Part shown: one piece after another, positions 6,173 to 46,927 of the stretch
Layout: every line of letters starts with the position of its first letter
Position numbering within the stretch: the first letter of the stretch is position 1
From: a virus
Virus record (IMG/VR): IMGVR_UViG_3300025941_000016
Coordinates: 1-64,000 of that record
Strand: one strand, 5' to 3'
Length of the DNA stretch: 64,000 bases
Made by a program: the position numbers and the translations under genes
Notes under the pieces: generated by a model
The model's input: the letters and a program-made list of their open reading frames with translations, nothing else
Database searches by the model: none
What the model was told of the DNA's origin: nothing

Positions 6173-6174
6173 AT

Positions 6175-10271: not shown

Positions 10272-10612
10272 GCCTCGCCGACTTCCAGGCGTCGAAGGCG
10301 TTGCGTAACGAATCCTTCGCCAGTCTGATCATCGCCGCTCACCAGCGTTCCCACGCCGACGACGCGGACCGCATCGACGAGACGTGGCACCGCTTCTTCG
10401 AGTTCCCAGACGATTACGGGTTCGACCACCGGGAGGCCGCGTCGATGCCCGAGGCGACGGCCAGCGCGCTGCTGATGGCTGCCTACTGGAAAGCGGACAG
10501 CATCAACATGCTGGGGCTCGCGCACAACTGGCCGCTGCTGTGCGCAGAGACCGAGGCCCGGAATGCTGCGCCCGGCGGGCGGCTCGACAGCGACCCGGCG
10601 GGGGTGGCCTGA
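10268..10612 (+). CDS. Hypothetical protein
   Basis: Coupled at both ends. Confidence 0.7.
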   Translation: MSLADFQASKALRNESFASLIIAAHQRSHADDADRIDETWHRFFEFPDDYGFDHREAASMPEATASALLMAAYWKADSINMLGLAHNWPLLCAETEARNAAPGGRLDSDPAGVA

Positions 10613-11031
10613 TGGGCGCCACCGTCGTCGCCCCCACACCAGACGAGGTTCGCCGCGCCCACCGGTTTCACTACTGGCCGCTGGAAGCAGCCCCCGTCAA
10701 GGTCGGCGTCGAGATCGACCCGGCCTCGGGCCGAATCATCGACGTGTACGAACAGCCGTCATCTCTGTGGCAGGCGCGCTGTGCCTGCGGCGTGCTGACC
10801 CCAGTCGCCTCCGACCGTTCGGAGGTTGAGGCGTGGGGCCGTGGCCACCGGTACGAACGGGTCATCACCGAGGCCACTGGCGGTGTGCTTCGCGACGGCG
10901 ACAACCAGTGGGGCTTCGTCTGCCCGTGCGGCGCGTTCTCGCGCGGATGGACCCGGAGCAAGGCTGACCTCGTGTGGCGGTGGCATCTGGAGGACTCCTG
11001 CCTGCTGCACCGTGGGGAGGTGGCGGCGTGA
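10612..11031 (+). CDS. Hypothetical protein with two CxCG...W..H motifs
   Basis: TGATG coupling; ARCACG and VCPCG. Confidence 0.65.
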   Translation: MGATVVAPTPDEVRRAHRFHYWPLEAAPVKVGVEIDPASGRIIDVYEQPSSLWQARCACGVLTPVASDRSEVEAWGRGHRYERVITEATGGVLRDGDNQWGFVCPCGAFSRGWTRSKADLVWRWHLEDSCLLHRGEVAA

Positions 11032-12672: not shown

Positions 12673-12814
12673 CGACGTCCCCGAGGTGGTGCGTCTCGCC
12701 CGGCAGATCGCCGCCGACGGGCTGACCGACGCCGCACCCCACGTCGGCCAGCTTGCCGCCGCCCTACACCACGCGGCGAACGAGCTTTCCCATCTGGGGG
12801 TCCGCAATGGCTGA
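12665..12814 (+). CDS. Hypothetical protein
   Basis: Overlaps both neighbours by 8 bp. Confidence 0.5.
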   Translation: MADDVPEVVRLARQIAADGLTDAAPHVGQLAAALHHAANELSHLGVRNG

Positions 12815-13814
12815 CCCCACTCTCCAGCTCCCGTCGGCGGCGGTCCCCCCTTCCGTCGTCGGCGGGGTCAACCTCCGTCCCGGGCCGGTGATCGGCTCCC
12901 GGTCCGGGACGGAGCCCCTCGTTGGCGAGCTGGCGCCGATAATCACGGTTCTGTCACTGGGGGCCGGTGTCCAGTCGACGACCTTGGCGCTGCTCGCCGT
13001 CGAAGGTTGGCTGCCAAAGCCGGATGCGGCGATCTTCTCCGACACCGGCTGGGAGCCGCGCGTTGTCTACGACCACCTGGACCGGCTGGAAGGTGTTATG
13101 GCCGGCGCAGGCATCCCGCTGTACCGGGTGAGCGCGGGCAACATTCGCCGCGACGCGCTTGACCCATCCCACCGGTTCGCCTCCATGCCGCCGTTCATCC
13201 GCAACCGCGACGGCGGGGACGGCATGGCCCGCAGGCAGTGCACCTCCGAATACAAGCTGAAGCCGATCAAGGCGAAGGTCCGCGAACTGCTGGGCTACCC
13301 CTATCCAGCTCCCATCCCGCGGAACGTGTTCGCCGAACAGTGGATCGGCTTTTCAACCGACGAGATCCACCGGGTCCGCGACACCCTAGACGTCCGGTAC
13401 ACCCGACCGCGGCATCCACTGCTGGAACTGGGCATGTCCCGGGCTGACTGCCGGCGCTGGCTGGCAGCCCGCGGCTGGGGTTCGACATCCAAGAGTGCGT
13501 GCATCGGCTGCCCGTTCCACGGCAACGCCCAGTGGCGCGACATGCGGGACAACCGGCCCGACGAGTGGGCCGATGCTGTCGAGTTCGACAAGGCGATCCG
13601 GCACGGTCACGCTTCGGCCAACGACGACGGCCAACCCCTGCTCGGTACCGCTTTTCTGCACCGGTCGCGGGTTCCTCTCGACCAAGCGCCGATCGACCGG
13701 GTAACCCGCCGGGAATGGGCCGACGCCCAGGGCGACATCTTCGATGTCCTCGCCGAGGAAGGCGACTCGGATGGCTGCTCGCCGTACGGCTGCCGGTCTG
13801 GGGCCGCCGCATGA
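12807..13814 (+). CDS. PP-loop / PAPS-reductase-like (adenine nucleotide alpha hydrolase) protein
   Basis: VLSLGAGVQST, AIFSDTGWEP, RQCTSEYKLKPI, WIGFSTDE, KSACIGCPFH, C-terminal GCSPYGC. Confidence 0.8.
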   Translation: MADPTLQLPSAAVPPSVVGGVNLRPGPVIGSRSGTEPLVGELAPIITVLSLGAGVQSTTLALLAVEGWLPKPDAAIFSDTGWEPRVVYDHLDRLEGVMAGAGIPLYRVSAGNIRRDALDPSHRFASMPPFIRNRDGGDGMARRQCTSEYKLKPIKAKVRELLGYPYPAPIPRNVFAEQWIGFSTDEIHRVRDTLDVRYTRPRHPLLELGMSRADCRRWLAARGWGSTSKSACIGCPFHGNAQWRDMRDNRPDEWADAVEFDKAIRHGHASANDDGQPLLGTAFLHRSRVPLDQAPIDRVTRREWADAQGDIFDVLAEEGDSDGCSPYGCRSGAAA

Positions 13815-18894: not shown

Positions 18895-19286
18895 TGGCCG
18901 CCGACCCGCGCCGTAACCCGCCGCCCGGCTGGACCGTGCGCAAGTCCGGCTCCCTGCCGTCGATGTCTGGCTGGAGGGCGTACAACCCGGACGGCAAGTG
19001 GTCGACCCTGTTCCGGACTCGCCGTGAGGCCGTCGCCGACGCTTGGCAGACCGCCGACAGCGCCCTACACGCCCAGCTCGTCGCAGCGCTGCACGCGGCC
19101 GGCTGGAACCCGGACCACGACGACCTGATTGGGCCGCCCCGGATGGGTGTCTTCGAGATCAACACGATCCGAGTCATGGTCAGCGCGGACCATAGCCGCT
19201 GGGTTGTCCAAGGCAAGGACGGGAGTTTCCTCTACGACGGGTCGTCGCTCGACGAGGCGTCCAAGGCGGTCGTCGAAGCGTTCTGA
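18894..19286 (+). CDS. Hypothetical protein
   Basis: TGATG coupling. Confidence 0.65.
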   Translation: MAADPRRNPPPGWTVRKSGSLPSMSGWRAYNPDGKWSTLFRTRREAVADAWQTADSALHAQLVAALHAAGWNPDHDDLIGPPRMGVFEINTIRVMVSADHSRWVVQGKDGSFLYDGSSLDEASKAVVEAF

Positions 19287-19618
19287 CCGACCTCTGACGG
19301 CTCGATGCCCCCGCCCTCCGCTGAAGATGTGGGGGCGTCGTCATTCCCGGGCCTGACCTTGGACGCTTCCCGCGGCATCGGACCGTCCAGGTAGTGGCGG
19401 ATCGCATCCCGGACCAGCAACTCCACCGGGCGGTCTTCGAGCACAGCCCGCGCTTCCAGCCGGCGCTCATCCCGCGGCGACACAGCCCGGTAGACCCGGA
19501 GAAGCCGGCGGATCGCTTCGGTCAGGTTCCCCGCCGGGCCGCGTTGCGCCCGGCGCATCGCCGCACGGAAGTCGCGTTCACCCATGCGGAACGTGCGGTT
19601 CGGCTCCCAACCGGCCAT
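19232..19618 (-). CDS. Ribbon-helix-helix DNA-binding protein (possibly tandem RHH)
   Basis: PNRTFRM...AAMRRA...NLTEAIRRLLRVY and second half VELLVRDAIRHYL. Confidence 0.6.
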   Translation of the reverse strand: MAGWEPNRTFRMGERDFRAAMRRAQRGPAGNLTEAIRRLLRVYRAVSPRDERRLEARAVLEDRPVELLVRDAIRHYLDGPMPREASKVRPGNDDAPTSSAEGGGIEPSEVGQNASTTALDASSSDDPS

Positions 19619-19625
19619 GCCACCC

Positions 19626-19658
19626 CCGCCATGTCGGCGCCATGTCGGCGACATGGCG
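19626..19658. promoter_or_regulatory. Putative RHH operator
   Basis: CGCCATGTCGG twice in tandem, then inverted CGACATGGCG, immediately upstream of the RHH start. Confidence 0.5.
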
Positions 19659-19896
19659 GATGACCAAGGAGTCTAGCTGGGAAAACGTAGAAACTACGGG
19701 GCTGCGGCGATTCGGACTTCCACCGAGGTGATTTCCCGGCTATTGTTGGGCGCGACAACCACATAGGTCAGGTCGGCGTGCCCGCTCCACCGGGTGCGCC
19801 CCGGACGCGGCAGCTCCCCTCGACGACTCCACTCGTCTACGGGCGCCACGTCCGGGACGGCTTGGTCAACCCCCTGAGCTAGCAGGAGGTCCACCC

Positions 19897-20586
19897 GTGC
19901 CGACAATGGCACAGGGCGTGCTCGAACGCGCGCCGACACATGATGTTGCGCCCGGAGTGGGCGGCAGGCGATCGGCCAGAGTGCCGCTCACCTACAGCAC
20001 GCTCGCGCCCCACGCCGACAAGTTCCACTCGAAGATCGATCGGACGTCGGAGCCCGGCCACTGGATCTGGACCGGCGGCTACACCTACCGGCGCCGCGCC
20101 GGATTCTGGTACGGCAGACGTGACGTCTGCCTAGCCGCACACGCCTCACTTGTCCTCGCAACCAAGCGGGATCGGCCAGCGGGCACACTCGCCCGCCACC
20201 TGTGCGAGATGACAGACTGCGTCCACCCCGAGCACTGGGCCTGGGCATGCGACGAACCCGCCGCGGGCCCAGAGCCAAGCGGACTGGTCCGGCAGGGCGG
20301 CGACCTCGACTGGCAGAACGACGCCGCCTGCCGGGACGCCCCCGACCCGAACATCTTCTACCCGGACCCGCTTCCTCAGCGCGCCTCCCACGAACAGCGT
20401 GTGGCCTTCCGCAAGCGCCAGGAAGAGGCGCTGTCCTACTGCGCCCGATGCGCTGTGCGGGAGAAGTGCGGGCCGTACGCCCTTGAGGTTTCCGGCGGCT
20501 ACGGCATCTGGGCGTCGATGCCAGAGAAGACGCTGGCAACGGTCGTCGAGCAGCGCACCGCAGTCCGACGGGCGGTAGTCGCGTGA
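19897..20586 (+). CDS. WhiB-family Fe-S transcription factor fused to a degenerate HNH domain
   Basis: WQNDAAC...IFYP...CARCAVREKC..YAL...GIW; N-terminal HWIWTG...RHLCEMTDCVHPEH; GGAGGT RBS. Confidence 0.8.
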   Translation: MPTMAQGVLERAPTHDVAPGVGGRRSARVPLTYSTLAPHADKFHSKIDRTSEPGHWIWTGGYTYRRRAGFWYGRRDVCLAAHASLVLATKRDRPAGTLARHLCEMTDCVHPEHWAWACDEPAAGPEPSGLVRQGGDLDWQNDAACRDAPDPNIFYPDPLPQRASHEQRVAFRKRQEEALSYCARCAVREKCGPYALEVSGGYGIWASMPEKTLATVVEQRTAVRRAVVA

Positions 20587-20680
20587 CCACCACAAGCAGC
20601 CTCGTCTGTGACCACTGCGGGTCGATTCAACACCCAACCGGTGCCTGTCCGCTTCCCCGTAGCCCGGAGGACCGGCGCCG

Positions 20681-20923
20681 ATGAGAACCAGCCTCCCGGT
20701 CACCTTCGTGCGGAGGCCGCTGATCCCGATCGGTGTGGGCGTCTTCGTTCTCATCGGCTTCGGCTGGCACGCCGCCTGTCTGACATTCGCCGCCGCTCAG
20801 GCCACCCTTGCGGCCATCGAACTGATCCTCAACGCCACAGGCCGGCTCGCCCCGCAGTGGGCTTGGCCTACATGGGCCCTCACCGTGTCGATCTACATTC
20901 TGATTTCTCCACTGTGGAGCTGA
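20681..20923 (+). CDS. Small membrane protein
   Basis: Two or three hydrophobic segments; GGAGG RBS. Confidence 0.6.
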   Translation: MRTSLPVTFVRRPLIPIGVGVFVLIGFGWHAACLTFAAAQATLAAIELILNATGRLAPQWAWPTWALTVSIYILISPLWS

Positions 20924-20928
20924 CCATC

Positions 20929-21441
20929 ATGCATCCCGTCCTCGCCGCCACCGAGGCGGCAGCAACCCCCATTCACATCACCGGTGCCGACACGGCAACT
21001 GGCACCGCCGCGCTGGTCCTCGCTGGCATCCTGATCTGGCGGACCTGGACCCCCCGATTCCGGCACCTTCTGTTTCTCGTCGCCGGGGCCGCGCTCGCCG
21101 GACCACTACTCGGCTCCTACGTGTCCAAGCTAACCGGAACGGCCCCCGACTGGCTGCCAGTCTGGACGTTCGGCCTGGTCGCAACCGTGTTCCTGCTGGT
21201 CGAACTATTCCCCCACCAGCAGCATCGGTCCAGCCTGATGTCGAAGGTGAAAACACTGCACCACGGCCACTGGGTTCGCCGCGGTCAGGCCGAAGGGCTG
21301 ACGACCCACGCGGTCGCGTTCGTCTGGCCGCTGCTTGCGGCAACACTGCCGGGCGCGCTTGGCCGGGGAGCGCCGAAGGTCGCGAACACGCTCGCAGTCA
21401 TGCCGCTGACGCTGATCCACTCCCTGCTGGGGGTGTCCTGA
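20929..21441 (+). CDS. Multi-pass membrane protein
   Basis: Three or four TM segments; coupled to the downstream gene. Confidence 0.7.
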   Translation: MHPVLAATEAAATPIHITGADTATGTAALVLAGILIWRTWTPRFRHLLFLVAGAALAGPLLGSYVSKLTGTAPDWLPVWTFGLVATVFLLVELFPHQQHRSSLMSKVKTLHHGHWVRRGQAEGLTTHAVAFVWPLLAATLPGALGRGAPKVANTLAVMPLTLIHSLLGVS

Positions 21442-22763
21442 TGCCCCGCATCCCGTGGCCCGTCCGCCGCGAGGGCCGGAGTTTGGCCGAGGTCCGCGCC
21501 GACCTGGAAACCCGCCAGGTTGTGCTCGACGCGGCGCTCGAACGGGACATCACCGCGCTGAAGGCGCAGGGACGCCGCGAGGCGGTCCTCGCCGAGGTCC
21601 ACGAGGCAGAGGACATTGCCCGCTGGGCGCGCCACGACCGCCGGTCGGCCCGCAGGTACGCCCGACGGTCCGCCCGCGTTGCCCCAACAGTGTCGGGTGC
21701 GGTCTACGCGATGGCCGTGGGGACCGCGGTCGGCGGCCAGGTCTCAACGGCGATCGACGTGCTCCACTGGCCGGTGTACGGCGGCGTCGGCATGTCCGTG
21801 TTCGTTGAAGGGTTCACCCTGTCGATGGCGCTGACCGCCCGGGATCAGCGGCTGGCCGGTGAGCGGGCGGTCGCCCCCCGGATGTTGACGTGGATCGGTG
21901 CCGGGTTCGCGTCGGCGGTCAACGCCTACGCCCACTCGAACGACCCGCTGGCCGCGGTTCTGCTCGGCGCCGCCTCACTGGTCGGCATCACCGTGTGGGA
22001 AATCCGCTCGGGTCTCCCGCTGCGGAAGGCGCTGCGGGAGAAGGGGCTGATTTCCGAAACCCGCCCCCGTCTGGGGGTGGCCTATTCGGCGCGCTTCCCG
22101 GTTCGCGCTTTCGACGCTTTCTCGGCGTCGATTGCCGACCCGGCGGTGTCGACCCGGGACGAGGCGATCGACGCGGGTGGGATCCGCCGGGCTCGTCGCC
22201 GTCCGATCCGCCTGCGCGGACGGTGGACGGTGTGGGGCTGGTGGCGGACGGACGGACCTGCGGACGGACGGACGGACGATCAACGGGCGGCGGACGGTGA
22301 GACGGTGGCGGCTGGCATGCAACCGACCCTCGGATCACGGACGGACGGACCGCAGCAGCCCCCATGGGCGGACGAAGCCGCAACCGCGGACGGTCCGGTG
22401 GACGCCAGAGTGGACGGCGTGGGCCAGGTGGACGGACCGGCCGGTGGGGCTGGGGACGGACGGACCGCCGACAGCGGTGGACAGACGGACCGTCCAGTCG
22501 GCGGGGACCGTCCGTCCGCGGGCAGGACGGTGGACCGGTCCAAGCCGCGGGACTACCTCGCCGAGGTTCGCCCGGTGTACCGGCACATGGTTGTCAGCGG
22601 CGCGCGGATCACCCGGGATGCGCTGGGAGGCGAACTTCGGGCCCGGGGTATCTCGGTGCCGAACGCGCAGATAGGCGAGGTGATGCGAACCCTGCGGGCC
22701 GAGATGCCACCTGGTTCGGTGCAGCCAGAGACGTCCCCCGAGGCCGCCGAGGTGACCTCGTGA
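21441..22763 (+). CDS. DUF2637 / SpdA-like membrane protein with a C-terminal helical DNA-binding-like domain
   Basis: Four-TM core (W...SVFVEG...RMLTW...SAVNAYAH...VWE), low-complexity linker, C-terminal ITRDALGGELRARGISV. Confidence 0.7.
   Translation: MPRIPWPVRREGRSLAEVRADLETRQVVLDAALERDITALKAQGRREAVLAEVHEAEDIARWARHDRRSARRYARRSARVAPTVSGAVYAMAVGTAVGGQVSTAIDVLHWPVYGGVGMSVFVEGFTLSMALTARDQRLAGERAVAPRMLTWIGAGFASAVNAYAHSNDPLAAVLLGAASLVGITVWEIRSGLPLRKALREKGLISETRPRLGVAYSARFPVRAFDAFSASIADPAVSTRDEAIDAGGIRRARRRPIRLRGRWTVWGWWRTDGPADGRTDDQRAADGETVAAGMQPTLGSRTDGPQQPPWADEAATADGPVDARVDGVGQVDGPAGGAGDGRTADSGGQTDRPVGGDRPSAGRTVDRSKPRDYLAEVRPVYRHMVVSGARITRDALGGELRARGISVPNAQIGEVMRTLRAEMPPGSVQPETSPEAAEVTS
22217..22535 (+). 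repeat. Polarised GGACG(G) repeat cluster
   Basis: About 19 GGACG copies by hand count, including (GGAC)n runs. Confidence 0.75.
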
Positions 22764-23026
22764 CCGGGACTGTGGGTCGCGGTGCGCAGCGTCGTACCGC
22801 TGCCCACAGGACCCGTCAGACCCGGCTCAAAGCGCGGGCGAAGGCGGCGCGGAGATCACCCCTCGCTCAGATGTCGGCTGGCTTCGACTTTGTCCGAGCG
22901 GTCGTGGCCCGGTTGCCGGCCAACGAGGCTCAGGGGGCCGCCAACGAGTTCATGCAGTTCGCTGTTCCGTTCGCCGAACGACTCGCGCAGGGGGTGGAAA
23001 TCCACGATGACGATCACAGCCAGTGA
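22760..23026 (+). CDS. Hypothetical protein
   Basis: GTGA coupling. Confidence 0.6.
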   Translation: MTGTVGRGAQRRTAAHRTRQTRLKARAKAARRSPLAQMSAGFDFVRAVVARLPANEAQGAANEFMQFAVPFAERLAQGVEIHDDDHSQ

Positions 23027-23633
23027 CGAAACGGGGAAGATCGAGATCCCCTCTCGGGGGGCCTCCCCTGCGGCGCCGCCAGCCGAGGAAACGGACCAAA
23101 TGCGCGCCCGCGCGCATGCGAGGACCGCAGCCTACCCCATCCGGTGGGGGAGGGGGGCGGCCAGACTGATCGCCATCACGGTCAGTGACTACCGGCCGGT
23201 GTGGGAGGCCACCCCCATCCCTCTCGGAGAGGTCTGGGGATGGGCCCGCGCGGGCATGTGGACCGGCCACGAATCCAAAGCCCTGCGGGGGGTGTACGCC
23301 GCCTACGCGGCCGTCATCGCCGTGCCCGCCTCCGCGGTCGCCTACTGGGCGACCGGCGAACTGATGAAGGTCAGCGGCCTGGACGAACCCGACGACCCGG
23401 AAGGGTCGGGATGGAGCCCGGCACCCCCGCCGCCGGTCGCCGAACTGTGGTGGCGGATGCGCGCCGACGTCGAAGCGGCCGAGGTTCGCCCCTGGGCGGT
23501 GGCTCTCACGGAAGGCTCCGCGGTGATCGCATCCGGGGTGCTGCTGGCCGGCGCGTGGATGGCCCAGCGACTCGGACGGGTCGCAACAGTCCTCGCGATT
23601 GTCGGGACTGTTGCCCTATGCCGGTGGCGGTGA
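23007..23633 (+). CDS. Membrane protein
   Basis: Several TM segments; internal duplication-like P.P...E.W motif. Confidence 0.7.
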   Translation: MTITASDETGKIEIPSRGASPAAPPAEETDQMRARAHARTAAYPIRWGRGAARLIAITVSDYRPVWEATPIPLGEVWGWARAGMWTGHESKALRGVYAAYAAVIAVPASAVAYWATGELMKVSGLDEPDDPEGSGWSPAPPPPVAELWWRMRADVEAAEVRPWAVALTEGSAVIASGVLLAGAWMAQRLGRVATVLAIVGTVALCRWR

Positions 23634-23636
23634 CCC

Positions 23637-24569
23637 ATGGAACTTCTGATCATCCTGTGGCTCACCCACGCGATCATCGTCTCGGTTCGCGAAGGCGTCA
23701 TCACCACCACCGCCCTGATCCGTAAGCAGCCGGTGCCCGCGCGCCGTGCGGAAGATGGCTGGCTGCGGACGATCGGACGGACGATGGCCCGCGGGTTTGT
23801 GGACGACTTGGCCGCCAAGCGGGCTGCGGGCGCCGAACTGCGGACGAAGAAGCGGACCGCCCGCCAGAGGCGGCGGACGGACCGGTGGGAGGCGCGGCAG
23901 GCGAAGCGCCGTCCGTCCGGTGCGGTCGATCTTGACGAGCGGATTCCGGACTGGGCCCGCGGACGGACGGACGATCGGCGGCCGGACGGACTGGCCACTC
24001 CCCCCACCGAAGATCGTCCGTCAGTGGCACAGGACGAAGATCGTCTGTCCGGGCCTACGGCGAACATCGACCCGGCCGCGCCCGACAAAGATCGTCCTCC
24101 CACTGGTCCGGATGCACCCCCGCCGGACCAGCCGTCCACCAGCGAACCCGGCCGCCCGTCGCTCCGGCTCGTTCCACCACTCCCCGACATTCTGGAGGCA
24201 ATGCCCGACATGACCACACCGACAATGCCGACCGGGGAAATCCCCACCATTCCCCAGCTCGCCGGTTTTCTCACCGACCTGGAAACCCATTTGATGTCGC
24301 TACGCGGCGCCGCCGTCAACGCGCTGCGTGTGCTGACATCGCCAGCCGAAAGCGGCGGCCACGGTGTCACCGACACGACACTGACAGGTCTGCTCAACCA
24401 GATCGTCCAAAGCCTCGACGGCGCGAAGGCGACCTGCCCCACAGCCCGCACGGCCCTCCAACCCCACATCGCCGCCGCGAACGCCCTGCACGGCGCCCGC
24501 GGTGCCGGTACCCGTACCGCGTCCTACACGGGCGTTCCCGCCCCCGCCCCCGAGCCGGCTGGAGTCTGA
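23637..24569 (+). CDS. Membrane-anchored protein with a Pro-rich linker
   Basis: N-terminal MELLIILWL hydrophobic anchor; helical C-terminal domain. Confidence 0.7.
   Translation: MELLIILWLTHAIIVSVREGVITTTALIRKQPVPARRAEDGWLRTIGRTMARGFVDDLAAKRAAGAELRTKKRTARQRRRTDRWEARQAKRRPSGAVDLDERIPDWARGRTDDRRPDGLATPPTEDRPSVAQDEDRLSGPTANIDPAAPDKDRPPTGPDAPPPDQPSTSEPGRPSLRLVPPLPDILEAMPDMTTPTMPTGEIPTIPQLAGFLTDLETHLMSLRGAAVNALRVLTSPAESGGHGVTDTTLTGLLNQIVQSLDGAKATCPTARTALQPHIAAANALHGARGAGTRTASYTGVPAPAPEPAGV
23766..24097 (+). repeat. Second GGACG cluster plus AAGATCGTC x3
   Basis: About 10 GGACG copies in 23766-23990; AAGATCGTC near 24010, 24037, 24088. Confidence 0.6.
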
Positions 24570-24648
24570 CCGCCGCCGTGCATCCCCGTGCACCGCGCCC
24601 GGGGGTGTGCGGCGGCAGCCAGATTGCAGGAAGAACGAGGAGACTCCG

Positions 24649-26604
24649 ATGCCGAAGAGCGTCAAGCCGGCGGACATCGACCATCTGCTGGCCGAGACCA
24701 GTCGGCCGGCTGCGGCGAGCAGCACGACCGGCGACAGCGCCGAGGTCGACGCCGGGGTGGCGGACAGCGCTGTCCGAGAGGGAACTGTCCTGCTTCGCCG
24801 CCAGCTTGTGCCGTTCGAGGTTGCGGCCTGTCTGGCGACCGCGGGCGCCGCTGCCCACCACGGCCTCGAAGAGCAGGCCGTCGGCTGCTGGTTCGCGCTT
24901 GGCGCCTTCTGCTGGATCGTGGCGTCGTGGCGTGCAGAGGAACCGGCGGACCGGTCGTGGCGGCGACGCTGGACGACGATCGTCACCGCCTGCGGCACAG
25001 CTTGGCTTGGCCTTGCCGGCCAGGTCGGCCTGTCCGATGTGACGATGGCCGGGCTGGCGGCCGGCACAGTGGTACTGGCCATCCCGTTCTGGACTCGCCG
25101 CAACGGCGACACGGAGCCAGAAGTCGCCGTGGAGCCCGAGCCCGTCGCCGAACCTGAGCCTGCACCCGCCGTCACAGCCGCGACGGACCCGATCGTCGAG
25201 AAGTGGAAGCGGACCGTTGCCGCCGACGGTGGTCCGCTGGCCGGCTCCTACCTCGCTGACCGGGAAGATCTGCCGGGCGGTGTCCGCCGGTACACGATCT
25301 ACCTAATCCCCGGGAGGCAGGTAACGGCGGATGCGACCCACGCCGTGGTGGCTGTTGCCTCCGCGTTCGGCGCGTCGCTCGCCAATCTCACGATCCGCCC
25401 GCCGGACGACGGGGCGCAGGACCGTGCGGTGCTTGTCATCGCCCCACCAAAGGCAAACCCGCTGGCGAAAATCCAGGCCCATGCCGGCTGGGGGAAGTCC
25501 TTCGACCCGCAAACCGGGACGATCGAAGCTGGACGCTACGCCGACGGGGCGGTCGGCCGGTGGGCTGTGCACCGGCCGGGAGACGGTGCTGTCTCTGGGT
25601 TTGTCTGCGGGGAAACACGGATCGGCAAGTCAACGTTCGTCAAGATGATCGGGTTGGAGGCGGCGCATCTCGGCTGGGCTTCTGTCTGGCCAGGCTGCCC
25701 CCGCGGGGGCGCTTCGTTCCCACAGCTTCTCGACGGATCTCCGTTCCCGGCCCGCTCGCGGGCGCGAATACTCGCCCAGGCGCGGGCCGTGTTGCGACTC
25801 ATGGATGTGCGCGCCGCGATGATGGGCCTGCGTGGCGAAGAGGTCCACACGCCCACATCGACGTCGCCGATGGTGTTGCTCATCTGGGACGAGGTCCACC
25901 GTCTCTTTCAACTCCCATGGGATGGCCCATCTGGCCAGTCCGGACAGTTGGAGATCCTCGCCGCTGCCGCGCAGATCGTCCAGGAAGGCGCCAAGTTCTC
26001 GGTCGGCCTGATCGCCGTCGACCAGCAGGCCGGCGCCGAGGTGTTCGCAGGCAACGATGCGCTGGCATCGAACCTGATGCGGCAGATCATGGCGTTCCGC
26101 ACCGCATCGAGCCGTTCGACGACGTCGCTACCCGGCGTGGGCATCGATCTGCGGTCCCTGCCGGAAAAGTGGTCCGACGGGTCGCTGGCCAAGGGACTCG
26201 GGATCTTGACCTCCGGCCAGGTTGGCGGTCAGTTGCGCACCGTGCTTCCCGACTTCACCTCGGTGTCGATGGCCGACCTGTCGCATCCGACGTTCGAACC
26301 GTGGGAGGTCGCGGCGATGGACGGCGACGACGGGCTGTGGACGAAACGCCATGTGGCGGCCGAGGCCGAGAGGGTTGGCAACGCGGCGAGGTCGCTGGAG
26401 GGCCTGTCCGACTCGGTGCTGGACGCGATGGCCGCATCCGACCCGGAAGTGGCACGGGCGGTCGAGGTGGCCAAGGCTCGGCGCGGGCGGGCTACTGCCC
26501 CGGCTGCTGCGTCGGATTCGGTGTCTGCCCGCTGGTGGGATCTGGGTATGCCCCCCGCGGGGCTTCTGGTTCCCGCTCCGATCCCGGCGAGGCAGTCGGC
26601 ATGA
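24649..26604 (+). CDS. FtsK/SpoIIIE-family ATPase, TraB-like DNA translocase
   Basis: N-terminal TM helices; Walker A GETRIGKS; Walker B LLIWDEVH; GAKFSVGLIAVDQ; GAGGAG RBS. Confidence 0.8.
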   Translation: MPKSVKPADIDHLLAETSRPAAASSTTGDSAEVDAGVADSAVREGTVLLRRQLVPFEVAACLATAGAAAHHGLEEQAVGCWFALGAFCWIVASWRAEEPADRSWRRRWTTIVTACGTAWLGLAGQVGLSDVTMAGLAAGTVVLAIPFWTRRNGDTEPEVAVEPEPVAEPEPAPAVTAATDPIVEKWKRTVAADGGPLAGSYLADREDLPGGVRRYTIYLIPGRQVTADATHAVVAVASAFGASLANLTIRPPDDGAQDRAVLVIAPPKANPLAKIQAHAGWGKSFDPQTGTIEAGRYADGAVGRWAVHRPGDGAVSGFVCGETRIGKSTFVKMIGLEAAHLGWASVWPGCPRGGASFPQLLDGSPFPARSRARILAQARAVLRLMDVRAAMMGLRGEEVHTPTSTSPMVLLIWDEVHRLFQLPWDGPSGQSGQLEILAAAAQIVQEGAKFSVGLIAVDQQAGAEVFAGNDALASNLMRQIMAFRTASSRSTTSLPGVGIDLRSLPEKWSDGSLAKGLGILTSGQVGGQLRTVLPDFTSVSMADLSHPTFEPWEVAAMDGDDGLWTKRHVAAEAERVGNAARSLEGLSDSVLDAMAASDPEVARAVEVAKARRGRATAPAAASDSVSARWWDLGMPPAGLLVPAPIPARQSA

Positions 26605-26609
26605 GCCGG

Positions 26610-26810
26610 TCAGGGTTCGTCGGCGGTCTCGGTCGTCTCTGGCATTGGGTCGAGCCGGCCGGCGGCGTATGCGGCGAGCCAGCCCGTGATGACGCTGTTC
26701 AGGGAGCCGTGGCTGTCTGCTTCGGCGCGGAGCTGGGCGGCTTCCCAGATGTGGACCGGGGGTCGGATGGTGCGGCCTCGCTGCCGATGGTAGTCGTCGC
26801 CTCTGACCAT
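26610..26810 (-). CDS. Ribbon-helix-helix repressor, probably leaderless
   Basis: RGRTIRPP..IWEAAQLRA...SLNSVITGWLAAY; TATGCT -10 lies 6 nt before the ATG. Confidence 0.7.
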   Translation of the reverse strand: MVRGDDYHRQRGRTIRPPVHIWEAAQLRAEADSHGSLNSVITGWLAAYAAGRLDPMPETTETADEP

Positions 26811-26825
26811 GAGTCGAGCATACCG

Positions 26826-26926
26826 GTGTGGATGTCCATGCCGGTAGGTGGTGTCTCTACCTGGCCTCAAAGTGGTGGAACAAAAAAATGGCGTTGCGTG
26901 TGGACGTCCATACCGGTTAGTATGGT
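26826..26926. promoter_or_regulatory. Divergent promoters with a duplicated 20-bp operator
   Basis: GTGTGGATGTCCATGCCGGT (26826) and GTGTGGACGTCCATACCGGT (26898), 18/20 identical; TTGCGT-18 bp-TAGTAT promoter. Confidence 0.65.
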
Positions 26927-26956
26927 GACACTGAAAAGCGAACGTTAGGCGTAGCG

Positions 26957-27133
26957 ATGCAGACGACAGACCGCACCACCGACCAGATCGCCGCCGACAT
27001 CACCGACTGGGGCGCCCTCAACATCGACGCCGAAGAGATGGGCAAACTTCTGATCCTGGTCCTTCGAGCGATCGACCGGGGTGCGAGCCTCGCCGAGATC
27101 CGCGCCATCATCGACGACGGAACGTCGGCCTGA
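26957..27133 (+). CDS. Hypothetical protein (58 aa, not in the ORF track)
   Basis: MQTTDRTTDQIAADITDW...; first gene after the promoter. Confidence 0.55.
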   Translation: MQTTDRTTDQIAADITDWGALNIDAEEMGKLLILVLRAIDRGASLAEIRAIIDDGTSA

Positions 27134-27146
27134 ACGGGAGAGCTGA

Positions 27147-27422
27147 ATGGCACGCAAAGGTCCGGTGACGATCCGGGAGTTCGCCGCAGCGCTGGCCGCG
27201 CTGCCGGCCGAAATCCAGGACGAGCCGCTGGTGGTCTTCGCGGATGTGGACGACGGGGAAGGGTTCACCCTTGCCCGCGCCGAAAAGGGCACGGGTCCGG
27301 TCGACCTGGTCCGCGGTGCGCTGACGTTGACGACGTTGCGGGGCTCCAGGGGCGAGTTTCGGGAGAACGCCACACCGGGGGACGGCGAGCGTTGGGGCGC
27401 CGCAGTCTGGGCGGCTTCCTGA
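27147..27422 (+). CDS. Hypothetical protein
   Basis: GGGAG RBS. Confidence 0.6.
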   Translation: MARKGPVTIREFAAALAALPAEIQDEPLVVFADVDDGEGFTLARAEKGTGPVDLVRGALTLTTLRGSRGEFRENATPGDGERWGAAVWAAS

Positions 27423-27811
27423 TGGCCGACACGGACTGGGTTCAGGTAGGCGCGACTGTCGCCGAGTACGACCACCGCTACCGCATGAACCCTCGGGTGG
27501 CCTTTGTGACCGTGGAACGAATCACCCCGGCGCAGATCGTCTGCGTGAACGGGAATCGGTACCGACGAGACAACGGCACGCGCGTCGGCGAACGCGGCGT
27601 CGAGATCCGCCCGGTCGACGACCGGGAGGTTCGCGGTGTTGTGGCGAAGCGGACGGCGGAACGCCTGTGCTTCGACGTCGACCGGATGCGGCTGGCCATG
27701 GGGCGCGGCGAGACTGACGCGCTCGCCCTTCTGGATCAGGTTGAGGCGGCTGTTGCCGCCGCCCGCGCAATGATCGACGACCCGGTTGGTTCCGGGTGGA
27801 CTTCCTACTGA
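27422..27811 (+). CDS. Hypothetical protein (SH3/beta-barrel-like N-terminus)
   Basis: VGATV...VTVERITPAQIV...RYR; TGATG coupling. Confidence 0.65.
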   Translation: MADTDWVQVGATVAEYDHRYRMNPRVAFVTVERITPAQIVCVNGNRYRRDNGTRVGERGVEIRPVDDREVRGVVAKRTAERLCFDVDRMRLAMGRGETDALALLDQVEAAVAAARAMIDDPVGSGWTSY

Positions 27812-27826
27812 GTGAGGGGAGGTCTG

Positions 27827-28108
27827 ATGCAGCGCGGCGGCCGTATCGCAGATGTGTCGGACTGGTCTGCCGGCCGGATACGAGGACGGTCGGCCAGCCG
27901 TGCCGCACAGAAACGGCAGGCGGTCGACAACCAGATTGGAGAGGGCATGTTCTTCGCCGGGGACGAGTACGCGGGCGACGAGGTCACCTCGGGGCCGTAC
28001 AGCGGTCTGGATGACCCGGACGCCGGCGACTACGAGTGCGACGACCTGGCCGACGTGGCTGACGGCTGGGACTACGACCGGAGCTATGACGACGAAGGGG
28101 AGGGCTGA
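27827..28108 (+). CDS. Protein with an acidic C-terminus
   Basis: GGAGGT RBS; Asp-rich tail. Confidence 0.55.
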   Translation: MQRGGRIADVSDWSAGRIRGRSASRAAQKRQAVDNQIGEGMFFAGDEYAGDEVTSGPYSGLDDPDAGDYECDDLADVADGWDYDRSYDDEGEG

Positions 28109-31798: not shown

Positions 31799-33046
31799 CT
31801 AGGAGGCGGCGCGGAACGTCCACACCGCCGGGTTGCTGGACGTGCCGACCTGCGGCAGGTTGGCGCCGCCAATCGAGATCCCCTTGGCGCCCATCCATGT
31901 GGCGAACGCCCCCTGGTAGACGGCGAACGCCTTCGCCAACTCCACGTCGGCCGGGTCGGGCTGCGCCGGCGGCACAGGAGTCGGCGGCGGGGTCGGAGTC
32001 GGCGCGCCGAGAAGGCCGGCGAGGACGGTTCCGACGGGCACGCCAAGCCCCGAGTCGGCATCCCAGCCGACAGACGGCGGGTAGACGTCCCTGCCCCCAC
32101 CGGAGACGATGTCGACGAACGCCTTCGGGTTGGCGTACAGCAACTCGGCCGCGTTCCGAATCGGCCCGCCGTTGAGCTGGCACAGCCGGGCCCAAAGCCC
32201 GGCCATCAGCGGTGCGACCGCGGAAGTTCCGCCGACCGTGGCCCACTGGCCGCCGGTCACCATCTGATAGCCCGAGTTCGGATCGGCGTTCCCTGCCAGG
32301 TCGGGCAGGCCGCGGTGTGAGCCGACGGTGGACGGCTGCCAGGTGGGCCGGGCGAACAAGCTGGAATAGCCGCCGCCCGTCGCCGAGCTCGCCGAGTCAT
32401 CCCACGGCGTCTCCGACAGTCGCGCCCCCGACGAGTCGAGGACAAGCCGGGTACCGCCGCAGGCAAACACGTTCGGCGACGAGGCTGGGAAGTCTGCGAC
32501 CTTCCGGCCCGTGCCGTCCAGGTCGCCGCTGTCCCCGGCCGCGCAGAACACGGCCACCCCCGCGGCGGCGGCCTTCGCGAACACCGCGTCGTAGGCGCGC
32601 ATTGTCGACGCCGACCATGACGACTCCGGGCCGCCCCACGAGCAGGACACCGCACAGGGACCCGACGCGATCGCAGCCTCGAACGCGTCCAGGAAGCCGG
32701 CGTCGCTGTTCTCGCCGAAGAAGACGAGCTGCTTGGCGCCCGGCGCTGCGGCGGCAACGATCTCGATGTCGAGCATCACTTCGACGTCCGCCCCGCCCGG
32801 GTCCGGGGTGATCGAAGCCCCGCCAACCGCCGTGCCCGACACGAACGGTGTCGGGATGCCGGAGCCGTCGCAGAAGGTGTGCAGGTCTACCGGGTCGAAA
32901 GCGCCGCCGAGTTCGACGATCGCGACCGTCTGGCCGGTGCCATCGACACCGGACGGAAACTGGTAGGCGTTGACGATCTGGGCGACGGTGAGGGCCTTCG
33001 GGGCGCTGCCGACGCGGGGACGGCGAAGGTACGGGGACGCGGTCAC
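31799..33046 (-). CDS. S53 family peptidase (sedolisin/kumamolisin-like), catalytic domain only
   Basis: GTGQTVAIVELGG, EVMLD (Glu-Asp), SCSWGGPE, AAGDSG, FPASSP, GGTSAVAP (Ser); GAAAGGG RBS before GTG 33046 (alternative start 33061). Confidence 0.92.
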   Translation of the reverse strand: MTASPYLRRPRVGSAPKALTVAQIVNAYQFPSGVDGTGQTVAIVELGGAFDPVDLHTFCDGSGIPTPFVSGTAVGGASITPDPGGADVEVMLDIEIVAAAAPGAKQLVFFGENSDAGFLDAFEAAIASGPCAVSCSWGGPESSWSASTMRAYDAVFAKAAAAGVAVFCAAGDSGDLDGTGRKVADFPASSPNVFACGGTRLVLDSSGARLSETPWDDSASSATGGGYSSLFARPTWQPSTVGSHRGLPDLAGNADPNSGYQMVTGGQWATVGGTSAVAPLMAGLWARLCQLNGGPIRNAAELLYANPKAFVDIVSGGGRDVYPPSVGWDADSGLGVPVGTVLAGLLGAPTPTPPPTPVPPAQPDPADVELAKAFAVYQGAFATWMGAKGISIGGANLPQVGTSSNPAVWTFRAAS

Positions 33047-33105
33047 GAGGTGCCCTTTCATCGCGACGAAAGGCCCCCGAGCGGATAGCAGGGGGCGAGG
33101 GGGAC

Positions 33106-33134
33106 TAGCGATACATACCAGTGGTGTGTATAGT
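33106..33134 (+). promoter_or_regulatory. Moron promoter with a palindromic operator
   Basis: ATACATACCA-G-TGGTGTGTAT palindrome overlapping -10 TATAGT. Confidence 0.5.
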
Positions 33135-33172
33135 GGTGGTGTACGCAAGTGCGAAGCCCGAGAGGACACCTC

Positions 33173-33484
33173 ATGGACATGCTCTGGAGCGAGATCGACG
33201 GCCCGGCTTCGGGCTTCGTAGCAGGCCCCACGCTGGTTCACATCGAGGTCGCAGCCCCAGAGACGGACATCTGGCACGCGGTTAGCGACATCGACGACAA
33301 CGTCATCGACACCGGCTACACCGGCACCTGGGACGAGATCGCCGAAGCGGCAGCCGCCGACTACGCCGACAGTCAGGCGCACGACGGCGCCCAGGTCGGA
33401 ATGCAGGTCCGCGCGACCGTGTACTCGGACTACGTGAGCGCAGGGCAGGTCTCGCAGGTCCACACCGTGAAGGCCATCGCCTAA
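33173..33484 (+). CDS. Acidic hypothetical protein (moron)
   Basis: GAGGA RBS; TAATG coupling. Confidence 0.65.
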   Translation: MDMLWSEIDGPASGFVAGPTLVHIEVAAPETDIWHAVSDIDDNVIDTGYTGTWDEIAEAAAADYADSQAHDGAQVGMQVRATVYSDYVSAGQVSQVHTVKAIA

Positions 33485-34107
33485 TGGCCGACACCAACTC
33501 CGCCGAGCTGGCCGCCCTCATCGCCGGTCAGCTCAGCGGCATGCCCGACGACCCGATCGACCAGATCCGCTACCTTCGCGCCAGATCCGTCCTTCTCGAC
33601 GAGGTCAAGGCAGCATTGGCGGTCCAGCGGGACGCCATCACCGCTGGACTCAACGAACACGACCACCTGTCCTACGCGAAGATCGCCGCAAAGGTCGGCG
33701 ACCTCACCCCGTCCGGCGTCCAGAAGTTCGTCGACGCCCACAAGGCCCGCACCACTGTCACTGTGGACGTCGAGATGGAGACCGAAAATGGAGGCGAATG
33801 GGAGCTGGTCGCGGGCCATGTGTTCCCGCTGACCAGCAACGCACGGGAGGTGGCAGAGTTCGCGATCCGGGTAACGCTCGGACTGCTGCCCGAGACCCGC
33901 GACGCCTCAAATGCACCCAGCCGTGCCATACGGGCAACTGTGTGTCAGGACGGCGAGGTACTGGATGAGATCGAAGTGGGCGACTTCGTGTGCGACGCGG
34001 ACAGCGACAAGTCAATCCGCCGTGCCACTTGGTGGGAACAGGCGGTCTCTCTCGAAGCACCCGATGGTGTGTTCGAGGTCGATGGGCGGAGGGTCTACGT
34101 CGGCTGA
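33484..34107 (+). CDS. HTH-containing protein (moron regulator)
   Basis: LSYAKIAAKVGDLTPSGVQKF. Confidence 0.7.
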   Translation: MADTNSAELAALIAGQLSGMPDDPIDQIRYLRARSVLLDEVKAALAVQRDAITAGLNEHDHLSYAKIAAKVGDLTPSGVQKFVDAHKARTTVTVDVEMETENGGEWELVAGHVFPLTSNAREVAEFAIRVTLGLLPETRDASNAPSRAIRATVCQDGEVLDEIEVGDFVCDADSDKSIRRATWWEQAVSLEAPDGVFEVDGRRVYVG

Positions 34108-35195
34108 CGCACCAGAACATTCGCCGTCGACGCCGGCAGCACCGCCCGCAACGTCAGCCCGGTCAGAGCGGCCGTCAGCGCATCCAGACGTGACAGCACC
34201 GGTGTCAGATCAGCCCCACCGGCGGTCGACACGGGCAACGCTTTGATGGCGGTGAGAACGGCGACAAGCTGCTGGGAGAGCGCGTTCAGCGCGGCTACGA
34301 CTTCGCCAGTCGGCCCGAGGTAGTTGACGATCTGCCCGACCTCGGACGAAATCGCATCTGAACGGGCGGCGAGAGACAGGTCGCCCTTGTTCCAGCCGAG
34401 CGCGGCAATGATCGCGTTGACACCGTTGTAGACGGTCTGCTCCAGCGACAGGATCGCCTTCTCGGTGGCCGCCCATGCGGGCTGGCCTGCGCCTGTGCCC
34501 TCGTTGAGGACGGCGCGGACGATGCCTGCCATCTGCTGGGCCGTGGGGTCGTCGAGCACGAGACCTCCAAGAGTGGGGAGCCATTCGCGCAGGACGCGGG
34601 AACTGTCCGACTTGCCGGGGATACCGGGCTGGACGGCCTGGTTGGTGTACTGGCGGGCGACGACCTGTGTCCGGTCCCAGCCGGCGGGCAGGGGCATCGC
34701 CGAGTCGGCGACGGCCGTGTTGTAGGTCGCGAGGTGCAGACGGCGCCAGCCCGGCGGCAGGATGCCCGCGGTCAGGCCGACTGGTGTGGCGTACCAGGTG
34801 CCGCTGTAGATCACGCCGGTTGGGTAGCCGTGCTGGACGAGCCGGTTGGCGAAGTCGGCGGCATGCCGGCCGCCAAGGTTGGCATGGTCGTTGGGGTCTT
34901 CCGCGTCGAGGCACACCCAGTCGCGGGGACCTGCACCGCCGGCCCCTTCGACGGCGGCAACGAAGTGATCCGCTTCTGCGGTGCCGCTCGACTGACTGGG
35001 CCTCGCAAAGTGGTAGGCGCCGCGGGCCAGACCCAGCGTCTTGGCGCGCTGCCACCAGATCGCGAACAGGGGGTTCGTGTAGCCGGTGCCCTCGCTGGCC
35101 TTGACCAGCAGCCGGTCGCGGCCCGAGCGGGTATAGGTGTCCAGGTCGAGGCCGGCTTGGTAGGGGTAGGACACGTCACTGAACTCGGGAGACAT
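34095..35195 (-). CDS. Endolysin, GH25 muramidase
   Basis: DVS.Y.Q, VKASEGTGYTNP, GAYHFA, LDAE, IYSG, QYT, D motifs. Confidence 0.92.
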   Translation of the reverse strand: MSPEFSDVSYPYQAGLDLDTYTRSGRDRLLVKASEGTGYTNPLFAIWWQRAKTLGLARGAYHFARPSQSSGTAEADHFVAAVEGAGGAGPRDWVCLDAEDPNDHANLGGRHAADFANRLVQHGYPTGVIYSGTWYATPVGLTAGILPPGWRRLHLATYNTAVADSAMPLPAGWDRTQVVARQYTNQAVQPGIPGKSDSSRVLREWLPTLGGLVLDDPTAQQMAGIVRAVLNEGTGAGQPAWAATEKAILSLEQTVYNGVNAIIAALGWNKGDLSLAARSDAISSEVGQIVNYLGPTGEVVAALNALSQQLVAVLTAIKALPVSTAGGADLTPVLSRLDALTAALTGLTLRAVLPASTANVLVRQPT

Positions 35196-46908: not shown

Positions 46909-46927
46909 GGCGGACCTCCCGAGAACG

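Follow-up and report, generated by a model that had tools for sequence, protein, structure and literature searches.

We analyzed a stretch of 64,000 nucleotides (the window), bases 1 to 64000 of the 99,986-bp IMG/VR record IMGVR_UViG_3300025941_000016, which is classed as linear and 87% complete. PHROG matches to tape measure, tail-associated, endolysin, and replication genes identify the record as a tailed phage. Most of its genes lie on the minus strand, and a plus-strand arm of ∼20 kb (9945-30365) contains the gene cluster studied here, called the module, which ends with a membrane-anchored P-loop ATPase. The limits of the arm come from a crude gene caller based on G+C content at third codon positions (GC3), used for the phage and the retrieved loci in place of a trained gene finder. 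A sequence-only reading had proposed that the module is a TraB/Spd-type transfer system like those of actinomycete plasmids. Sequence comparisons gave good support to a relationship between the module and loci on actinomycete plasmids or on elements resembling the integrative and conjugative elements of actinomycetes (AICEs), by kinship for the ATPase and by parallel content and order for the gene set. The features of the module and of its borders are as follows.

19232-19654, minus strand, divergent from the module: small regulator of 140 amino acids, ribbon-helix-helix (RHH)-like, with the fold judged by eye only
19626-19659: palindrome, candidate operator, 17-nucleotide arms that are 88% complementary, spanning the 5′ end of the regulator gene
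19897-20586, plus strand: HNH endonuclease-WhiB fusion of 229 amino acids
20681-20923, plus strand: small hydrophobic open reading frame (ORF) of 80 amino acids, hydrophobic by eye and without a PADLOC family match
20929-21441, plus strand: membrane protein of ∼170 amino acids, from a candidate ATG at 20929 inside the ORF 20608-21441
21441-22763, plus strand: DUF2637 membrane protein whose long linker is rich in repeats and whose C-terminal segment is conserved
22760-23026, plus strand: probable small basic protein of 88 amino acids, not in the ORF list, with a GTG start that overlaps the DUF2637 stop; uncertain
23007-23633, plus strand: membrane protein with three hydropathy peaks, from a candidate ATG at 23007 inside the ORF 22782-23633
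23637-24569, plus strand: 310-amino-acid protein, hydrophobic in an N-terminal segment and rich in Pro, Asp, and Arg in its body
24649-26604, plus strand: membrane-anchored P-loop ATPase of 651 amino acids
26610-26870, minus strand, convergent with the ATPase gene: Arc-like RHH repressor of 86 amino acids or shorter (PHROG 6506, 6.6e-5)
26819-26834 and 26909-26924: two copies of a 16-nucleotide direct repeat, candidate operator, around the start of the Arc-like gene

Each gene that the sequence-only reading had named in the plus-strand cluster (HNH-WhiB, the membrane proteins, DUF2637, and the ATPase) is an open frame at the place proposed for it, and the gene ends abut or overlap in an operon-like manner. 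The first product matched the Pfam family Whib (1.2e-12, residues 139 to 211) and PHROG families for WhiB (1.3e-11) and HNH endonuclease (1.1e-7, residues 38 to 114). The DUF2637 assignment of the 21441-22763 protein is a marginal pass (PF10935, 23.4 bits versus a gathering cutoff of 22.8). A simple Kyte-Doolittle scan, used here in place of a topology predictor, placed the hydropathy peaks of this protein at residues 80 to 186 and found five peaks in the 20929-21441 protein (residues 127 to 277 of the long ORF 20608-21441), which had no match in Pfam, PHROG, or NCBIfam. The 88-amino-acid ORF showed a weak likeness to an 83-amino-acid ORF that occupies the same place in a Frankia locus described below (L002:7960-8211; 30% identity over 54 residues, pairwise E value of 0.098).

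The module had also been described as bracketed by two RHH repressor genes, each with its own operators. The Arc-like gene is supported as such by its PHROG match; the upstream regulator gave a subthreshold RelB-like match in NCBIfam (0.013) and is 52% identical to its Frankia orthologue (L002:4066-4413). Repeats are indeed present at both regulator genes, but only as candidate operators.

The ATPase contains a Walker A motif (GETRIGKS) and a Walker B motif (LLIWDEVH), and its hydropathy peaks at residues 47 to 63, 77 to 93, 111 to 127, and 131 to 147 are consistent with N-terminal membrane segments. Taken alone, the protein matched nothing in Pfam (E ≤ 0.1), NCBIfam, PHROGs, or relevant PDB sequences, and the FtsK_SpoIIIE model (PF01580) matched nothing in the whole record even at E ≤ 1. 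A word-index search with 8,000 scored candidates found only four proteins: the phage ATPase itself (P0001), an 83% identical relative on a 14.9-kb contig (P0002), a 41% identical protein of Frankia sp. R82 (P0003), and a fragment with ∼50% identity (P0004). With a profile made from these four sequences, we retrieved 785 proteins from 1.84 billion representatives at E ≤ 1e-3, of which 553 remained at 1e-10 and 184 at 1e-30; most of the 785 measure 600 to 800 amino acids. We then scanned 70 of 151 retrieved relatives with Pfam (the closest ones and approximately every second one after them, with most fragments omitted). FtsK_SpoIIIE was recognized in 34 of the 70 (best 1.3e-10), AAA_22 in 21, MarR_2 in 11, and FtsK_gamma in 6, together with further winged-helix families, and 64 had a C-terminal winged-helix domain.

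Among solved structures, the 70-sequence profile matched Thermomonospora EccC (4nh0; 3.7e-27, 98.3 bits) and FtsK (2iuu; 3.3e-15) and also EccC5, HerA-type helicases, and a conjugative coupling protein, while its C-terminal columns matched many winged-helix regulators. In the ESM Atlas, the exact sequence of the phage ATPase was associated with Actinomycetota FtsK/SpoIIIE clusters, by features (0.94 to 0.98) and by structure (template-modeling score, 0.46 to 0.57). The Tra protein of pIJ101 (NC_001387.1, 3897-5843, minus strand), itself a PF01580 protein (9.3e-10), matched the 70-sequence profile with 99.1% probability (E value of 1.4e-18) over 411 columns, from the pre-ATPase region through the winged helix. 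By this alignment, the family has the TraB layout, in which membrane segments at the N terminus are followed by a single FtsK-type ATPase domain and, at the C terminus, a winged helix. Via the family profile, and only via this profile, the phage ATPase is recognized as a member of a TraB-layout branch of the FtsK/HerA superfamily.

To place the protein in a phylogeny, ATPase domains were excised with a hidden Markov model (HMM) of the family core, and a quick IQ-TREE analysis was run on 87 rows with the Shimodaira-Hasegawa-like approximate likelihood ratio test (SH-aLRT) as the only support measure. The rows comprised 65 of the 151 family proteins, 8 genome-derived members, the ATPases of the plasmids pFRL1 and CP109187, pIJ101 Tra, and Frankia sequences (FtsK, four EccC-like frames represented by D1 and, for three of them, D2, a 1044-amino-acid FtsK-like frame, and two small FtsK-like frames). 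pIJ101 Tra is the sole experimentally studied Tra in this tree, from which the pSVH1, SCP2, pSAM2, and pWTY27 proteins are absent. The ATPase family formed a clade of 75 rows (SH-aLRT, 99), with the 12 rows of FtsK, EccC D1/D2, pIJ101 Tra, and the small frames on the other side (SH-aLRT, 99). The phage clade P0001 to P0004 (99) is deeply nested in the family: it grouped with P0005, P0007, and P0023 (97), and a clade of 15 rows (99) unites these proteins with others, among them the ATPase of a chromosomal island in genome G238. The branch of pIJ101 Tra is long (1.7), and its placement is unsure. The sequence-only reading had proposed that grouping with EccC or with other non-TraB clades would refute it. 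The phage ATPase grouped with neither EccC nor FtsK, in agreement with its single ATPase domain and the lack of WXG100 proteins in the record, but it did not group with pIJ101 Tra either. The phage ATPase belongs to a sister family of pIJ101 Tra, one with the same TraB architecture.

We next considered where other members of the family reside. A tblastn search of 72,556 plasmids with the phage ATPase yielded 37 records, 28 of them from Streptomyces, with 25 to 33% identity and none covering 80% of the query. The linear plasmid pFRL1 (NC_010851.1) carries, in this order, WhiB, a DUF2637 protein, small proteins, and a 740-amino-acid ATPase labeled [quoted passage not shown] This ATPase is the plasmid's only match to the family profile or, weakly, to PF01580, and it scored 98.9% against the phage-clade profile. 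Matches were also obtained in 13 of 401 sampled genomes of the class (at 1e-10) and in 8 of 56 genomes of Frankia's order (at 1e-30), an order of hyphal organisms in which the relatives are concentrated. The G238 locus (32 proteins, 25 of 26 families listed) contains two WhiB proteins, DUF2637 (4.3e-44), GntR with UTRA, a tyrosine Phage_integrase, HTH_17, and SLT. Two WhiB proteins, GntR with UTRA, and Resolvase were found in the G270 and G188 loci (34 proteins together, 25 of 32 families listed), and Resolvase, a ParA-type ATPase, NUDIX, GntR with UTRA, and WhiB in the G420 locus (34 proteins, 25 of 32 families listed). The G420 locus shares with the phage its DUF2637 protein (48% over 124 residues), a 77-amino-acid protein, and a 148-amino-acid protein. 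No terminase, portal, capsid, or tail family was among those listed for G238, G270/G188, and G420. GntR repressors, NUDIX proteins, integrases, and Tra genes are typical of AICEs, and by their gene content we read the four loci as plasmid- or AICE-like settings.

pFRL1 and the islands thus have in common with the phage the ATPase family and the content and order of the genes (WhiB, DUF2637, small proteins, and ATPase). They differ in carrying recombinase, GntR, NUDIX, ParA, and SLT genes and in that their ATPases keep the winged helix. The proposal of a TraB/Spd-type plasmid module is therefore upheld with regard to ATPase kinship and to the parallel WhiB-DUF2637-membrane protein-ATPase arrangement, but the ATPase lies outside the pIJ101 Tra clade and no sequence match to the pIJ101 Spd proteins was found. 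When the module proteins were compared with pIJ101, pFRL1, and the G238 neighbors by phmmer, only WhiB and the ATPase matched. The "SpdA-like" label given to the DUF2637 protein is not backed by homology: phmmer gave no match to pIJ101 SpdA at E ≤ 1. According to PMC4447253, spd genes are often too diverse for sequence matching. We found no literature on transfer of pFRL1, and a full-text search returned none on DUF2637 for the topic of transfer.

Three of the islands have a shorter second ATPase paralogue (∼280 to 355 amino acids, profile positions ∼164 to 497) directly downstream of the full-length gene, and the phage has none. These paralogues are located at the following positions.

L034 14947-16014: shorter ATPase paralogue, G238
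L037 9442-10284: shorter ATPase paralogue, G270
L054 ∼10109-10747: shorter ATPase paralogue

Between ∼15 and 40 kb, the window is matched collinearly by a contig of Frankia sp. R82 (NZ_JAMQQG010000043.1, 89,514 bp). The order of the module is kept in this contig, which contains the regulator (52% identity), HNH-WhiB (30%), DUF2637 (42%), the counterparts of the 23007-23633 membrane protein (30%, residues 96 to 279) and of the 23637-24569 protein (27%), and the ATPase (41%). The HNH-WhiB orthologue matched Whib at 3.5e-16, and the DUF2637 orthologue scored 27.9 bits. The Arc-like gene 26610-26870 had no counterpart in the Frankia locus. Outside the module, the phage and the contig have further genes in common, among them those for the primase/helicase (68%), replication initiator (39%), and a tail protein (44 to 45%). 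In contig parts 1-20000 and 27380-87299, 13 of the 133 called phage proteins found a match. The region has lysis-type, tape-measure, tail, and replication genes. It also encodes integrases, a transposase, and anti-repressors, and no gene for head or packaging functions was among the matches listed for these parts (25 of 39 families listed).

All eight module frames of the phage are intact, and the identities of the module proteins between phage and Frankia (27 to 52%) are comparable to those of the shared replication and tail proteins (39 to 68%), which argues against a recent or decaying insertion. A separate, decayed insertion had been named as an outcome that would refute the transfer hypothesis; the conserved order in Frankia and the intact frames instead indicate that the module is an inherited part of the phage lineage. 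We obtained no relatives among 50,697 phage records, either by megablast with positions 19000-27000 or by tblastn with the phage ATPase and the G238 ATPase. Two IMG/VR pattern scans and one scan of JGI metagenomes also returned no phage relatives, a result of limited sensitivity that means "not found" rather than "absent."

The module contains two clusters of a short DNA motif. GGACGGAC had 20 matches in the window, counting both strands, versus 8.94 ± 3.26 in shuffled sequences, and none of 100 shuffles reached 20. Seventeen of these 20 copies fall in two patches.

22246-22517: first GGACGGAC array, 10 copies on the plus strand and 1 on the minus strand, in the DUF2637 linker
23775-23991: second GGACGGAC array, 5 copies on the plus strand and 1 on the minus strand, in the gene immediately upstream of that for the ATPase

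Over the whole 100-kb record, 15 of the 17 plus-strand copies are inside the two patches. The equivalent two places in the Frankia relative have a different motif, CGGWCCGG, with 73 copies versus 10.1 ± 3.5, and 70 of the 73 lie within L002 6731-7753 and 9123-9440. The position of the arrays is thus conserved between phage and Frankia, whereas their sequence is divergent. Most of the DUF2637-position genes that we inspected have an element-specific repeat in their 3′ half, and 11 of 11 end in a segment that looks helix-turn-helix-like by eye. We considered the GGACGGAC arrays as a clt locus; selection at the DNA level is not distinguishable here from slippage in a disordered linker, because (GGAC)n encodes one cyclic peptide whichever of its three frames is read. 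The glycine codon is consistently GGA, which is rare in high-GC genomes, and this hints at a DNA-level cause.

Two of the island DUF2637 genes contain a repeated 12-bp palindrome within Ser-Arg-Asp coding stretches (L034 7371-7508 in G238 and the L037 gene 16536-18290 in G270). These palindromes resemble in form the sps palindromes of pIJ101, which are located at two SRDE sites (L006 ∼8149 and 8182). As described by Thoma et al. 2014 (PMC4170104), sps is the binding site of SpdA2. The SpdA/sps pair may have its counterpart in the DUF2637 proteins of large elements.

We estimate at roughly 50% the probability that the module performs DNA moving or DNA handling of the double-stranded DNA (dsDNA) transfer or spreading type. 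Hyphal actinomycetes are compartmented, and passage of virions from one compartment to another requires lysis of the first. The host of the phage is probably a hyphal actinomycete of Frankia's order. On the transfer hypothesis, the module would be an inherited operon of the dsDNA transfer or spreading type found on actinomycete plasmids and AICEs. The ATPase would form a ring in the membrane and, acting with the DUF2637 protein and with the small membrane proteins, would move replicated or excised phage dsDNA. This DNA would cross cross-walls to neighboring compartments or enter touching hyphae, so that the phage would spread without virions, in a manner closer to Spd-type intramycelial spreading than to mating between donor and recipient. 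The phage pump has no winged helix, and therefore DNA choice would need a partner; more speculatively, the C-terminal segment of the DUF2637 protein might act on the GGACGGAC arrays for this purpose. The most elaborate version, a working phage-AICE chimera with capsid-free mycelial spread upon induction or in the course of infection, in which DNA choice would have moved to a membrane-tethered DUF2637 C-terminal segment reading GGACGGAC as a split form of the TraB-clt pair, is in our view unlikely.

Several observations weigh against a transfer function, the first being the C terminus of the ATPase. TraB reads clt through its C-terminal winged helix. A winged-helix HMM was built on the C-terminal domains that 64 of the 70 family members carry, with the phage clade and P0005 excluded. 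This HMM matched P0005 (1.7e-18) and the Frankia protein P0003 (2.4e-15), but it had no match in P0001, P0002, or P0004 or in the six frames of 24001-28000 (best E value of 0.2). The absence of a C-terminal winged helix, already suspected from the sequence, is thus borne out by a dedicated model, and it weakens the case for a TraB-like, clt-guided mechanism. P0001, P0002, and P0004, which are down to 48 to 50% identical, end at one residue, at which the Frankia protein runs on into its winged helix. Since three proteins are truncated at the same residue, the loss of the domain is old and stable. The Arc-like gene now abuts the ATPase stop codon. A frameshift or a split-off gene was considered as the cause of the missing domain and left no trace in any frame of 24001-28000.

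Further points against the hypothesis concern the motor and its partners. In FtsK, the Arg of the "KARAAGIH" stretch is the arginine finger (R620 of Pseudomonas FtsK). The aligned column is Ala or Ser in P0001 to P0003 (Ala448 in the phage) and Arg in 112 of 127 family members; at the first position of the DPQ motif, Asp is found in 118 of 127, against Cys in the phage clade and in a few other members. The Walker A Lys and the Walker B Glu are invariant (127 of 127), and 123 of 127 members, the phage included, retain the Lys that follows the finger column. We considered the Ala at the finger column as a sign of a dead motor and softened this view, given that 15 of the 127 members are without that Arg and that the next Lys is present in 123. 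The best solved relative of the ATPase family is EccC, ahead of FtsK; the phage ATPase falls outside the clade of pIJ101 Tra; and pIJ101 Tra reached a probability of only 0.5% with the narrow four-sequence profile of the phage clade. The module membrane proteins have no likeness to pIJ101 SpdA, SpdB, or KilB or to the plasmid and island neighbors (phmmer, E ≤ 1). Repeat-rich linkers with different motifs occur in other DUF2637 genes too, and the arrays may reflect only slippage in disordered linkers. Finally, the Frankia R82 relative may be a prophage remnant or a mosaic.

We weighed the transfer hypothesis against four alternatives. In the first, which we consider rather improbable, the module serves exclusion or defense: a membrane complex derived from a plasmid or an AICE would block foreign phage or plasmid DNA, or resident conjugative elements, without exporting self-DNA. 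Such a job would not involve recognition of self-DNA, which fits the loss of the sequence-reading winged helix, and the module lies between two repressor-like genes of an arm, a common site of genes expressed in lysogens, in a phage that is temperate. However, PADLOC defense models matched none of the 10 proteins tried, our searches found no known exclusion system of such composition, and the retention in Frankia of a multigene set and its DUF2637 arrays in order goes beyond the need of a simple exclusion protein.

The second alternative, of the same low probability, views the module as inactive or half-active cargo, a plasmid or AICE fragment that was captured by an ancestor and whose motor no longer works. 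The lost winged helix, the Ala in the finger column, the Cys in place of the DPQ Asp, and a divergence of the ATPase too great for the FtsK_SpoIIIE model of Pfam are all in line with decay. Yet the eight frames are intact, and four diverged ATPases (83%, ∼50%, and 41% identity to that of the phage) keep Walker A, Walker B, the finger-adjacent Lys, and Gln459. The finger-column Arg, which 15 of 127 members do without, is hence not essential to the family. Moreover, the end point shared by three truncated sequences speaks for a stable form under selection, and the degree of conservation between phage and Frankia is similar for the module proteins and for the proteins of replication and of the tail.

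A role in host development or segregation, in which WhiB and the FtsK-like pump would steer septation or place phage genomes in compartments or spores, is in our view distinctly improbable. Such a role has been proposed in general terms for the ftsK, parB, and ssgA genes of actinophages, and the module does open with a WhiB fusion. On the other hand, the WhiB-DUF2637-ATPase set also occurs on a plasmid and on islands resembling integrative elements, where the usual reading is transfer, and the ATPase is not near chromosomal FtsK in the tree; in addition, this role is not easily told apart from intramycelial spreading, with which it overlaps. Last, a type VII secretion motor of the EccC kind, which would export proteins, was considered on account of the best PDB match of the family profile (EccC 4nh0, ahead of FtsK) and was set aside as very improbable, since the phage protein has one ATPase domain in 651 amino acids whereas Frankia EccC-like frames match in two or three stretches, EccC D1/D2 are across a 99-supported split in the tree, 64 of 70 relatives have a winged helix of the DNA-binding type at their C terminus, and the record has no WXG100.

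The transfer hypothesis, to which we now return, can be compared with several described systems. Like the phage ATPase, TraB/Tra of pSVH1, pIJ101 (Tra/KilA), and pWTY27 (TraA) are membrane-anchored, single-domain FtsK-type ATPases encoded beside small, diverse membrane proteins. TraB/Tra systems also resemble the module in having short repeats inside or next to the transfer genes, such as clt and sps, as reported in PMC3583192 and PMC4170104. The winged helix of TraB reads repeated short motifs in clt, as stated in PMC3583192 with reference to Vogelmann 2011. pIJ101 Tra differs from the phage protein in forming a separate clade and in that the phage protein is without the winged helix and the finger-column Arg; the module also shows no Spd or Kil likeness. 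The criteria of Ghinet et al. 2011, as given in PMC3218068, define AICEs by Int, Rep, and an FtsK-domain Tra within 30 to 60 kb, with int not between rep and tra. An integrase (85148-85651), replication genes (4511-9104), and a Tra-like ATPase (24649-26604) are all found in the phage record. In contrast to a compact element of 30 to 60 kb, this record is 99,986 bp long and has virion genes, and tape measure, tail, lysis, and other phage genes separate the ATPase gene from the integrase gene.

The idea of a conjugating phage is not new, as pZL12 and pFP4 precede it: both are conjugating plasmid-phages of Streptomyces according to PMC3583192 and PMC4170104. ParAB is ascribed to pZL12 in PMC4487206. 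Compared by description only, the pZL12/φZL12 element thus has ParAB, whereas the phage studied here has an integrase and no ParB match. PhiNon1 of Nonomuraea is presented as an integrating, self-replicating plasmid-phage (PMC5431353), and the main text of that article does not mention TraB or FtsK. The sequence-only reading had also offered the term "phage-plasmid" for the present element. This term is not supported: a tyrosine integrase is present, and ParB (ParB_N) had no match in the 87% complete record, with ParA not searched for. The phage is temperate and integrase bearing.

Tra-type ATPases of the pIJ101 family occur in phages as well. At E ≤ 1e-3, pIJ101 Tra had 260 matches in phage records, of which 155 were from Bacillus phages, 52 from Mycobacterium phages, and 22 from Streptomyces phages, among others. 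Phages of the YDN12 type have a protein annotated "FtsK-like DNA translocase" that is 43 to 46% identical to pIJ101 Tra over ∼80% of the query. In YDN12 itself, gp71 (KP876465.1 54424-56484; L044 6905-8965) is a 686-amino-acid protein whose identity is 43% over 82% of the query. Residues 634 to 674 match the Pfam winged helix HTH_24, so this Tra homologue has the full TraB layout. YDN12 (Woodruffvirus) is thus, like the present phage, a tailed actinophage with a Tra-type ATPase. It differs in that its protein belongs to the pIJ101 Tra family and is encoded by a gene that stands alone at the end of the genome, where neither DUF2637 nor WhiB is annotated next to it. In connection with the SpdB2 homologues of φC31 and VWB, it has been proposed that spreading proteins of plasmid type, when carried by actinophages, aid the dissemination of phage DNA in the mycelium (PMC4447253). 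The idea is the same here, but a single Spd-type membrane protein is found in those phages, whereas the present module is centered on an ATPase and has no SpdB likeness. What is new in this case is a second family of Tra-like ATPases in a phage, accompanied by a full WhiB-DUF2637-ATPase module, and also a motor that stably lacks a DNA-reading domain and motif arrays that are conserved in position.

If the transfer hypothesis is true, a plasmid-type pump would provide the phage with a second route of spread, within a mycelium or between touching hyphae, and the boundary between phages and integrative conjugative elements would be blurred. Given the cultured precedents pZL12 and pFP4, the question becomes what the pump does for the phage rather than whether such hybrids exist. 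Tra-like genes have been annotated yet ignored in dozens of genomes of Streptomyces phages, and the present module adds a second ATPase family in phages, one that arrives with WhiB and DUF2637 partners. The long retention of the pump after loss of its DNA-reading domain is a natural experiment on the need for sequence-specific loading. The arrays, conserved in position and divergent in sequence inside module genes, are directly testable candidate cis sites.

Beyond the module, the record contains the following phage genes.

4511-9104, minus strand: helicase, primase, and replication initiator (PHROG)
34095-35195, minus strand: endolysin (PHROG, 2.8e-22)
39220-43620, minus strand: tail-associated protein (PHROG)
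43651-47103, minus strand: tape measure protein (PHROG, 3e-42)
85148-85651 of the record, minus strand: tyrosine integrase (Pfam, 42.7 bits, within a 378-amino-acid frame)

No tRNA genes were found, and no large serine recombinase domain was found in the record. The G+C content of the window ranges from 62 to 71%. The same plus-strand arm as the module encodes a phosphoadenosine phosphosulfate (PAPS)-reductase-like protein (12753-13814, plus strand; PHROG 424, 3.2e-50). A 554-amino-acid protein (31799-33463, minus strand) with a weak PHROG protease match (2.2e-8) is encoded next to the endolysin gene.

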